A stretch of DNA of 64,000 bases from Eledone cirrhosa. Its lineage: Eukaryota. The position numbers were made by a program, and so were the translations under genes. The notes under the pieces were generated by a model. The model was not told the origin of the DNA and did no database searches. It saw only the letters and a list, made by a program, of their open reading frames with translations. Shown piece by piece: positions 10,060-60,679 of the stretch (its first letter is position 1; every line of letters begins with the position of its first letter). The DNA is taken from positions 59,706,001 to 59,770,000 of the forward strand of contig OZ024743.1 of assembly GCA_964016885.1 (NCBI GenBank), given 5' to 3'.

Positions 10060-10412
10060 ATATTTATTAAAATAACATATTAAAGTTTAAGCAAAGAATC
10101 GCTGCTTTCACCCTTAACGGGATCTTCTGAAACTAACAAAGTCAATCTGTAAACGCAGAAGTGGATATTTCAAAAAACGGTGCAACCGGAGGAAGACAGT
10201 AAGACGATACTTTGGTTCGTGGAAACGTTCCCTGGCAAAGAACGGGAAAAAACGATATTAATAGGAGCGGTGAAAAACAATTACGCGCAAAGACAGAACC
10301 ACGTTTATGGTATAACAGAGGTCGTAGACGAATTGTTAGTTTCAGAAGATCCCGTTACGGGTGAAAGCAACGATATTTTGCTTAAACTTTAATCTGTTAT
10401 TTTAATAAATAT
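10060..10412. mobile_element. Small foldback element with ~80 bp terminal inverted repeats, each containing a hammerhead-like fold
   Basis: 10060-10139 is the reverse complement of 10333-10412; a second copy of the left arm and interior lies at 54395-54805. Confidence 0.75.
10338..10388 (+). ncRNA. Type I hammerhead ribozyme candidate, variant core CAGAAGA
   Basis: agttt-CAGAAGA-t cccg tta cggg t-GAAA-gcaa...ttgc-TT-aaact: stems I, II and III all pair; the core has A at canonical U4. Confidence 0.6.
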
Positions 10413-12820
10413 ATATATATATATATATATATATATATATATATATATATATATATATATATATATATATATACATATATATATGTGTGTGTGTGTGTGT
10501 GTGTGTGTGTGTGTGTGTGTGTGTGTGTGTGTGTGTGTGTGTGTGCGTGTGTGTGTGTGTGCGGCTGTGTGTATGTGTGTGTGTATGTATATGCACATTG
10601 TCCAGTTTTTAGCTAGCACATACTTCACGTATAAGCTATAGTAGAAGACATTTGTCTAATAAACCTTTCCTTTACACAAAACAGAGAAACATAATTTCAA
10701 AATGCATTTGTTCGCCACACATCCATGCAACTAAGATGCTTACTTAATAAAGGTTATTACCGAATTAGTGTCAATTTGTTGTTTCCTGCACCAGTCATGG
10801 ATCCCTGTGAAACTTTTAGCTATTTATTTCTGTGTCACACATACCTATTTCTTTATATTATATACAACGTATCAATTTATTGGAATTTCTACTTACGTTG
10901 GATATGTTTGACAATCTAGCCATTGATAGCTCTGGATATCAGAATAGTTCCTAATATAGTATATTGGCTGATCTCTTTGGTGCTTGAAATTCGATATTGG
11001 TTTTTCCTTGCATTTATGAAACCTCTAAGCGGCTCAATTATATTTGATAACAAAAGAAATATGTAATGATATTTTACTTCATCAAGTGAGTCCATTCCTC
11101 TCGTATTTGATTTTAAAACAGAAATGTACATATTGTTGCAAATTTCACTGTTAATAAGTACATTTTCAACAGGTCTACATCTAAAATGCTGCGAGTGTAT
11201 GCCTCTTATTGGGAGGTTTTACTTAACTAATGCATATTATATTTTATAGCATTATCTATTTACTATACAAATACTGGAACGCTAATTTTACAACAATGAC
11301 AACATGTCATATTTCAAACTAACCCTTCGGATTAACCGTTATTAGCATTTACACAATAAGTATACAAGTATATCAGATTTTAACAAATAAAATATTTTTA
11401 CTTTATTTCGTCAAAGAATTGGTCTTCCAAATGTTATGTTTACACATTTCAGAAATGAAAAAGAGAAACATTGTCGTCTCAATACTAAACTGAAATAAAT
11501 AATATTTGCAGTTTTATAAAAAAAAAAAAAAAAAAACGTGCTTCGTATTCAGAAAATATGATATATACAAAAAGTATTATTGACATATGTGTCAACTACA
11601 CGATATCACTATGAAGTAATGATTTATGGCTTCAAATGATTAATGGACAGATGTGGACACTTATATATATATATATATATATATATATATATATATATAT
11701 ATATATATATATATATATATATATATATATATACAATCAAACCGAGATGCGTACATTCAAATATATGGACATAAAAATATATAAATGTAGAAAATAATGA
11801 TGACACAAAAGCGAAGATATCATTCCGATTCCTTATGAATGCTATTAATTTATAACTGCCAGTCGCAGAAGCAGTAACTGTATTACATTTTGCTAACGTC
11901 TTATTGGCCATAAACTTTAGATCCAGTATTTATCCTACTGGGCAGAAATAGCTAAATGTGCCAATTATTAACAATAGATTCCTTCTAGCTTTTAATACAT
12001 TCAAGGACAGCAATATTTTTTTTATTTCAAGATTCTGTCAAAGATAAACAATTCTCAAATCCTTCGTTCTTGTAATTAATTTGAATTTACACACAAACAC
12101 ACACAGACAGACAGGCACACTTATATACACACACACATACGCACCCACGCAGGTGTACTTCTATAAATACACTTATGCATGGGCTCGTACTCACACATTC
12201 ACACATAATTGATACTTCGCATATATATATGTGTGTGTGTGTATGTGTGTGTAGGTTTGTGTATGTATGTGTGTGTGTGTGTGTGTGTGTGTGTGTGTGT
12301 GTGTGCATCTAATGGGTTTCAATTGTTCTTAAATACTGAAGGTGTCCTTTGAATTAGGATTTTAATCAATGATTACTTATACATCAGTTTTGTGACAAAG
12401 ATAGACAATTGCATAATGTTTCCTAATCAGATCACCCAATAATCGATGATTAGCCGTAATGATATTAAAATAATACCATCCAAGATCTCGAAGCATAGTA
12501 GAATTCGATATCAGTTTTGTGTGTGCTTGAATCTTTCATCATCTATACTGTGATGCACTTTAGAAATCCTTTTAATAAAATTAATGTCTTTCAAGCTGCC
12601 ATTACCTATAAATAGTAGGATATCGCTAGATCTTAGCGGATTGAATATTGGACTGAAGCAGCGTTGGTGCAGTAATGCTAATAGTCAATCTGTTGGTTAA
12701 AAGGCCGAAATCCTATAGATTCCGCTAGCTGAAAATTGTCTGCTTCACGAGTAGATTGTTATAATCGACCTAAGTAGATAACAGTCAAAATCGAGTCTTC
12801 ATATAAAAGATTCTCAAACC

Positions 12821-59831: not shown

Positions 59832-59882
59832 AGATTCCTGATGATTTCTAAAGAATGAAACAGTTCTAGTCCTGTATAATCT
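59832..59882 (+). ncRNA. Type I hammerhead ribozyme with canonical core (in module B, 59463-59901)
   Basis: agattc-CTGATGA-tttct aa agaat-GAAA-cag ttctagtc ctg-TA-taatct; GUA triplet; the 43 kb copy supplies the perfect stem I (gaatct). Confidence 0.75.
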
Positions 59883-60679
59883 CATCTATATTAAAACTAT
59901 AAAACTATATATATATATATATATATATATATATATATATATATAGAGAGAGAGAGAGAGAGAGAGAGAGAGAGAGAAAAGAAAGAGAGAGAGAGAGTGA
60001 AGAGCGACAGAGAGAGTAATTCAGTTAAATTATAGAGAGGGGGAATGATCTTACATACATACATGCATACATAAATACATACATATAAATTATAGATATG
60101 TGTGTGTGTGTTTGTGTATGTGTATGTGTATGTGTATGTATATGTGTGTTTGTGTATGTGTGCATGTGTGCGTCTGTGTGTTTTGTTTTGATGTTATACG
60201 GCAATTGGCGAAATCAGGTGTGAAAGTATGTGTGTGTGCGTGTGTGTGTTACTCATGCGAGCGACGACAGAAAAAGTCAGGGGGATACATACATTATTAT
60301 ATTTGTCTGTATTTTTCGTTCTGCAACCATTATATTACGATATTTGTATCCAAATGATTTTAGATGTATGTATTACCTGCTTGCCCGTCCCTCTGTGTCT
60401 TTTTCCCTGTTGCTCTCTCTCTCTCTCCTCTCTCATCTCTCTCTCTCTCTCTCTTTAGATGTTTGTGAGTGTGTAGTTTTGCTAATCTGTCTCTTTCATC
60501 TTTGTCTCTCTAAGAAGGTTCCCTTTTTATGTATGTATTACCTGCTTGTGTCTTGACCGAATTTGAAGGAGGTTATCCGTTTGAAATAAATATACATACG
60601 ACGCTCATCTCTATGTTGATATTGATATAAATAATGGGATTGATGTGTTAATATCTGTATACAACAACTACAACGGTAC

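Follow-up and report, generated by a model that had tools for sequence, protein, structure and literature searches.

The window analysed here is a 64,000-nucleotide stretch of Eledone cirrhosa DNA (contig OZ024743.1, positions 59,706,001 to 59,770,000), taken from a 3.0-Gb assembly with many microsatellites and retroelements. It carries a series of small repeats that end in or beside (TA)n tracts and contain type I hammerhead ribozyme folds. An earlier note on this DNA had placed five families of such repeats at 11 positions, labelled here A (10.1/10.3/54.4 kb), B (33.1/36.0 kb), C (42.9/59.1 kb), D (43.4/59.8 kb) and E (55.7/43.8 kb). All 11 repeats are present, and the five families are mutually unrelated (best cross-family blastn match E = 0.018 over 16 nt). 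The hammerhead folds are real, yet the families are different kinds of element. A, D and E are identified as the pseudo-long terminal repeats (pLTRs) of coding Penelope-like elements (PLEs), three in number, that carry Hydra-clade motifs. B is identified as the pLTR of a Neptune-type PLE, both clade names being given from sequence motifs. C is identified as a retrozyme of the kind without long terminal repeats (non-LTR), with a non-coding, circularly permuted unit of 428-434 nt. In each family the 3' end is of two kinds, short and long, and the stretch that separates them is termed the tail. The members in the window, with their open reading frames (ORFs) and untranslated regions (UTRs), are as follows.

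6344..6626, minus strand: retrozyme-type repeat of a further family, I, half of a 552-nt unit, short end at (TA)n; hammerhead 6508-6600 with a 9-bp stem I, a long stem III and U3-A8.
9972..10333, minus strand: family A pLTR, long-end foldback arm; its hammerhead, 10085-10134, has the core CAGAAGA, a basal U-U pair in stem II and a CUU site.
10333..10412, plus strand: inverted arm of family A with the short end, (TA)32 coming next; hammerhead 10338-10387.
32952..34724, minus strand: long-end arm of family B, a Neptune-type PLE, with a GIY-YIG remnant at 34414-34722 (Pfam), a 1.3-kb 3' UTR and a minimal hammerhead 33091-33128 with a U3-A8 core and palindromic stem III.
34723..36079, plus strand: inverted arm of family B with the short end, (TC)n(TA)n coming next; hammerhead 35973-36010.
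42086..42210, no strand assigned: tiny family E foldback of short and long ends only, between two (TA)n tracts.
42799..43185, plus strand: retrozyme-type family C copy of ~0.9 unit whose long end runs into (TA)n; stem III is altered in its hammerhead, 42867-42905.
43345..43813, minus strand: pLTR copy of family D whose short end lies in a TA-rich tract; its hammerhead, 43361-43411, is decayed.
43816..44071, minus strand: diverged E subfamily (79%) with a U3-A8 core, the hammerhead stopping before the cleavage site.
54391..55084, minus strand: 5'-truncated family A copy (3' UTR and pLTR); decayed hammerhead 54408-54457.
55154..55291, minus strand: inverted arm of family E with the long end, terminating in (TA)43.
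55668..58887, plus strand: element E, a near-intact Hydra-type PLE with a 5' pLTR (long-stem-II hammerhead 55704-55805, C3.A8 mismatch), an ORF at 55988-58203 and a 3' UTR.
58890..59435, plus strand: retrozyme-type family C copy of 1.27 units, long end followed by (TA)15; hammerhead 59129-59167; it spans its own unit junction and adjoins the 3' UTR of element E.
59458..59906, plus strand: pLTR copy of family D, its short end leading into (TA)20; hammerhead 59832-59882 with canonical core and GUA.

A strict canonical hammerhead descriptor gives no hits over the window, and covariance models fail to recover the folds, Rfam yielding no hammerhead family in the window up to E = 10. A relaxed type I descriptor, which permits U3-A8, a palindrome as stem III and U-U as the basal pair of stem II, gives 8 hits against 0.18 +/- 0.38 in 100 shuffles, a contrast that is inflated and partly circular as the descriptor was composed after inspection of the sequence. 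Seven of these hits are at listed places and one, at 6508-6600 on the minus strand, is not. The remaining four of the 11 listed hammerheads are damaged or cut: that at 54.4 kb (A) has mismatches in stems II and III, that at 42.9 kb (C) has lost the stem III palindrome, that at 43.4 kb (D) has GACA in place of GAAA, and that at 43.8 kb (E) ends before the cleavage site. Variants with U3-A8 and with a palindromic stem III are known among PLE hammerheads (PMC4209133). When six isolated motifs from A-E were folded, their stability was no better than that of shuffles (z 0.53 to -0.99), as expected of minimal or dimer-type hammerheads. Applied to 0.78 Mb of genome loci, the relaxed descriptor gives 303 hits against 1-5 in shuffles; some ten additional hammerhead motifs that recur there are unlike those of A-E. 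The genome harbours many PLE or retrozyme families.

For A, B, D and E, the non-coding character expected of a retrozyme is absent, since each adjoins a PLE ORF. The evidence comes from genome searches that returned 1,156-2,756 candidates each, of which the best 40 were scored and at most 30 loci read per search. Copies of A extend upstream into a Hydra-type GIY-YIG ORF, a same-strand piece of which, ~50% identical to E, lies upstream of the pLTR in 13 of 29 loci outside the window; the shared sequence fades upstream in the pattern of 5' truncation, and in one locus (L023) the tail continues into the ORF's beginning. Element E itself, described earlier as near-intact, does have its ATG at 55988 and stop at 58203, with two frameshifts between them. 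It is without a 3' pLTR, at the very point where the C copy sits (58890), but other copies, ~90% alike, join the window ORF and 3' UTR to a pLTR, and one locus (L096) has the pLTR followed by the ORF; 773 homologues are found at E <= 1e-20. B reaches a GIY-YIG domain on the same strand in 7 of 29 outside loci, and a full two-ORF element, pLTR-ORF1-ORF2-pLTR, is present at L307. Its ORF2 has DKG, a linker of the clade's CX2-5CxxC pattern and a CCHH GIY-YIG domain at the C terminus, and B shows 22% identity to E. A, D and E, in contrast, share RWR and SDKT motifs, a CxCX5C linker and an endonuclease with CxxC and CxH but no CCHH, and all three have a hammerhead in the pLTR and insert in (TA)n.

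Family D seemed non-coding across 90 loci, the reason being that its 3' UTR is lost in an extended TA/TG tract crowded with nested insertions. A pattern search for D tails that do not run into TA nevertheless found a recurring continuation: among seven read-through loci, four (L245, L251, L266, L271) enter a Hydra-type ORF ~51% identical to E, two represent one tandem locus and one stops short. That D might be a retrozyme with the TA tract inside its circle was rejected on this ORF link and on the lack of any direct D-D tandem in the 90 loci, and a longer D tail in L138 proved to be a join to another family, F. Family F itself (L143, L145, L148-L150, all outside the window) is a circularly permuted, TA-associated repeat of ~638 nt with a CUGAUGA core; the scan gave no complete hammerhead in it, and another ribozyme topology is possible. 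PLE ends of a further family, G, lie in the same orientation just upstream of the TA-rich 5' region of D at about nine distinct D loci (seen at L231-L239, L173, L174, L176 and L193; none in opposite orientation alone), and are seldom seen upstream of other families. The G copies there are only 70-80% alike, so G and D were taken as separate insertions and not as one element. Beside a D element in L304, at 5617-7140, is an uninterrupted 507-codon frame encoding reverse transcriptase (RT) and GIY-YIG domains of another PLE type. The earlier note had proposed that the three families without a coding remnant are retrozyme-like or, in its bracketed option, solo pLTRs. The former holds for C; A and D are pLTRs and not retrozymes. 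Four PLE ends lying in TA tracts are ordinary.

No such coding link is seen for C. Its genome copies were sampled as 56 position-ordered loci on one chromosome arm, covering 89 of the first 100 matches listed, within a total of ~75 loci read out of thousands; a 24-nt motif beside the C core has 10,902 exact matches in the genome. No shared upstream flank is found in 19 loci over 4 kb, nor any shared upstream sequence at the 97 listed 5' starts of the 56 loci; what lies upstream is always more C unit. Copies exceed one unit in 42 of the 56 loci and reach two units in nine, shares that are inflated because all 56 were picked via the hammerhead motif, which favours long copies. Tandem arrays occur at L079 and L288, the former with ~12 units, including a recent five-unit duplication at the DNA level. 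C has no blastn match to the A, B, D, E and G elements or to the F unit, its longest ATG frame is 40 codons, and its GC content is ~40% outside the microsatellite part, below the 45-50% used as a retrozyme criterion. Of 99 copies, 87 retain an intact core. Of the possible refutations named in the earlier note, that every family is simply the 3' UTR of a coding Penelope element is true of A, B, D and E and not, in the loci read, of C, and the call for stem covariation is answered in C for a single pair of stem I. This pair is U.G in 74 copies, A-U in 17, G.U in five and unpaired in three (n = 99), and in a 48-sequence alignment 11 sequences show double changes, a level matched by none of 500 shuffles. 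The circular monomer of C folds better than shuffles (z = -4.5), in part because of TA-rich palindromes.

Some further observations concern C. It is also found in sequencing runs of two other organisms, including a ~90%-alike variant with an intact core; two runs that may be of RNA gave no alignment to it, and neither result bears on transcription. In the C copy at L080, eight of 14 differences are A>G, common to its tandem partner, which suggested a possibly edited template; a general role for ADAR editing was rejected, since A>G and T>C occur about equally often among the rare changes (27 against 29, and 31 against 29 for the position-ordered loci). That C is an assembly artefact is unlikely, since foldback arms differ by ~3% and termini fall at fixed sites.

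The ends of C show the insertion footprint of a PLE. The tails measure 88 nt in A, 63 in B, 72 in D, 80 in E, ~55 in C and ~112 in I. For C, 79 of 95 3' ends fall inside two windows that make up 8% of the unit, nearly all then passing into (TA)n. Its 5' starts are compatible with a uniform distribution (Kolmogorov-Smirnov p = 0.29), with one of 94 at the cleavage site. Head-to-head foldbacks are present at 29 of the 56 loci, and when both ends are canonical the two arms divide the short and long ends between them in 21 of 21 cases, nine of 30 pairs with at least one non-canonical end having been set aside. The four PLE families behave alike: 17 of 20 pairs in A, 12 of 14 in B, 16 of 18 in D and 32 of 35 in E (77 of 87 pooled; set aside 2, 2, 2 and 1, respectively). 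End frequencies would give 45-49% (p <= 0.003 in each family). The arms of one C locus diverge by a median of 3.4%, copies at different loci by 6.6%, which fits one template source. The siting of ends in (TA)n, which the earlier note had described, is borne out: (TA)4+ lies within 30 nt of canonical ends in 79 of 94 cases for A, 62 of 64 for B, 106 of 123 for D and 117 of 119 for E; as a yardstick, 8% of all positions in the window have a (TA)6 run no more than 150 nt downstream. The PLE-type structures claimed there, foldbacks and partial tandems with (TA)n ends, are likewise confirmed at the listed copies, save that the supposed partial tandem at 54.4 kb is an internal 140-bp duplication within the 3' UTR of A. 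In copies that read through the start site, the template continues with TAT or a TA run at nine of 12 sites and with TAAT at one.

Family I, which the earlier note did not contain, is identified as a second non-coding retrozyme, with a circularly permuted unit of 552 nt, a spacing seen in tandem at L364 and L367. The search gave 1,882 candidates, its motif occurs in at least 20 copies, 16 of them identical, and its hammerhead is the strongest-looking ribozyme in the window (fold z = -4.0). The sample of 18 loci (within L352-L371) shows the two ends, TA flanks and foldbacks; judged by eye, six of eight foldbacks are short plus long, and the other two each have one non-canonical end. No ORF link is found among the ~75 C loci and these 18.

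How could elements that encode nothing acquire such ends? The reading we favour, with good confidence, is that A, B, D and E are the ribozyme ends of coding PLEs, and that C is probably cut free by its hammerhead, closed into a circle and then copied by reverse transcription into (TA)n, the RT/endonuclease of a PLE acting in trans. What is observed is the structures, the ends and their pairing, the number of copies and the links to coding sequence; the steps may be inferred as follows. A locus with more than one C unit would be transcribed, and two hammerheads would pair via the palindromic stem III and release a monomer, which a host ligase would close into a circle. The PLE protein, probably as a dimer, would cut both strands of a (TA)n tract, and each DNA end would prime cDNA at one of two fixed RNA sites, ~215 and ~270 nt past the cleavage site, aided by a UAU match to the target. 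Synthesis would cover a variable distance, often beyond the unit junction, and the two cDNAs would be joined 5' to 5', giving rise to the one-short-one-long foldbacks, partial tandems and arrays. C and I share the PLE footprint and encode nothing, implying that the PLE protein must act in trans. The footprint is present in both Hydra-type and Neptune-type families, so the partner enzyme could be of either type. The template is likely to be a circle, as analogy with the retrozymes of coral, mussel and axolotl suggests (PMC7229834).

A more specific proposal, to which we give an even chance, is that one PLE dimer on one RNA starts two cDNAs at two fixed sites, one for each cut (TA)n end; that free-living circular retrozymes, which resemble none of the PLE ends sampled here, have acquired their own pair of start sites and so hijack the dimer; and that the birth of a circle is to be seen in a D tandem at L303 (C1, 67.88 Mb). 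This locus has ~3.3 copies of a 222-bp unit in which the D hammerhead, tail and first ORF codons are rejoined to the pLTR; the tandem begins in a TA-rich tract and terminates at the long end of D. It looks like a newborn retrozyme, and a local duplication is possible. As an amplified family it was rejected, the junction occurring three times, all at one locus.

Several points weigh against the trans-mobilisation of a C circle, besides the selection of long copies and the pairs set aside, given above. An uncleaved multimeric transcript would leave an identical DNA footprint. The covariation amounts to few inherited events at its one pair and not to many independent ones. The cores of A, which has an A at position 4, and of E, with C3.A8, are non-canonical and may cleave poorly. 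The two start sites of D are without a TAT match, and no PLE parent of C was found among the loci read. In vitro, the hammerhead of an anole PLE is dispensable for insertion, and the enzyme primes without homology (PMC11167929).

One rival idea is that PLE machinery moves C from linear, uncleaved multimeric transcripts of tandem loci, with the hammerhead a passenger and no circle needed. This we consider unlikely. It would account for the lack of any pile-up of 5' starts at the cleavage site, it has the C arrays as available sources, and it agrees with the unaffected insertion of hammerhead mutants (PMC11167929) and with the 8-10% differences between units of the L079 array, which do not resemble one circle copied repeatedly. 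It sits poorly, however, with a core intact in 87 of 99 copies and a stem I maintained through double changes, with the closeness of tandem units within a locus (median difference 2.4%), and with the abundance of other animal retrozymes as circles (PMC7229834). Alternatively, C might belong, as its pLTR, to another coding PLE with full-length copies that are scarce or gone, much as D, too, seemed non-coding before its tail was followed; the ORF of D emerged only through a targeted pattern search, and the C loci read are few among thousands. Yet copies that run past the long end of C enter the next unit, those extended in the 5' direction reach the previous one, and the shared upstream 3' UTR seen in most pLTR copies of A, B and E is seen in no C copy, making a hidden PLE highly improbable.

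An equally small probability attaches to the movement of C by a microsatellite-targeting long interspersed element (LINE), or to spread at the DNA level by recombination or slippage in TA tracts. RT-encoding elements with (TTA)n flanks do occupy 12.8-32 kb of the window, the C unit has TA-rich stretches within it, and the five-unit duplication at L079 took place in DNA. Against this, C is without poly(A) or a repeat tail of its own, has two fixed internal ends and a polarity with scattered 5' ends, and shares its strict short-plus-long pairing with the four PLE families. We conclude that the footprint of C is genomic evidence for PLE RT/endonuclease moving retrozymes in trans.

Other features of the window can be dealt with briefly. 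A cluster of RT-encoding retroelements at 12806-32205, on the minus strand with (TTA)n tracts between its members, resembles R4/Dong-type elements. Further TA-flanked foldbacks or repeat ends with no recognised hammerhead lie at 36245-36731, 41674-41927, 42289-42512, 44608-44900, 45599-45692, 49240-49629 and 55377-55670; these are probably tails that belong to other families of PLE. A dispersed repeat of ~200 bp, abundant and resembling a short interspersed element, is found at 3381-3595, 6842-7029, 14969-15040, 32204-32516, 40763-40976, 52913-53119 and 63179-64000, and a piece of it is also present inside the 3' UTR of E in some copies.

How does this assemblage compare with known systems? 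The earlier note could match it to no described family, but the set fits PLEs of the Hydra and Neptune clades (PMC8557442) together with the non-LTR retrozymes of metazoans (PMC7229834; bioRxiv 10.64898/2026.07.22.740005). All its parts belong to known kinds and it is not a new system; its value lies in a mapped, testable footprint. Hammerheads and (TA)n insertion have been described for Hydra-clade PLEs, and a PLE tail is often at one end only (Craig et al. 2021, PMC8557442). A, D and E share with these C-terminal-endonuclease PLEs RW(R), DKT, the CxCX5C linker, the absence of CCHH, and CxxC and CxH, as well as a pLTR hammerhead, (TA)n insertion, partial tandems, inverted 5' copies and a one-end tail. 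They differ in having RWR where RWK is given there, in the size of E (~3.6 kb by estimate, against 'generally <3 kb'), in tails of 72-88 nt rather than 30-40 nt, and in the unusual cores of A and E. B resembles Neptune-clade PLEs (PMC8557442) in its DKG, CX4CxxC linker, CCHH GIY-YIG domain, separate ORF1 and microsatellite target, with nothing notable to set it apart and a tail of 63 nt; its minimal U3-A8 hammerhead is a variant described in PMC4209133.

The closest functional parallel is the anole Poseidon element PAc (Frangieh et al. 2024, PMC11167929), for which both strands are cut and extended, a dimer is predicted, and two internal RT start sites define the tail. For PAc the same start sites are used on both strands, whereas here each foldback has one short and one long end, and the PAc start sites are without homology to the cut DNA, whereas here TAT follows most sites. 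The strict short-plus-long pairing in six families also constrains how PLEs build inverted, one-tailed insertions.

C is most like the metazoan non-LTR retrozymes (PMC7229834; bioRxiv 10.64898/2026.07.22.740005), which are non-coding units of a few hundred bases in tandem or partial tandem, each with one type I hammerhead, with low GC, thousands of copies and PLEs alongside; the U-U at the base of stem II recalls the axolotl HHR_Amex2. It differs in its (TA)n targeting, 5' inversions and two fixed 3' ends, which are not reported in the parts of those papers at hand. A literature search likewise found no report of this insertion footprint for retrozymes, with subscription papers, Repbase and preprint supplements outside its reach. 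The enzyme that moves animal retrozymes is left open in the same two sources. PLEs have been named a strong candidate (Cervera and de la Pena 2020, PMC7229834), a mobilisation hypothesised from co-occurrence and similarity to pLTRs, although C is unlike the pLTRs sampled here; an origin from pLTRs is backed in vertebrates by co-occurrence and phylogeny, the mechanism remaining open (Li, Clavereau and Pollet 2026, bioRxiv 10.64898/2026.07.22.740005). What C adds to those accounts is a full PLE insertion footprint with predicted priming sites mapped to within a few bases, so that trans-mobilisation becomes directly testable with the existing in vitro PLE assay.

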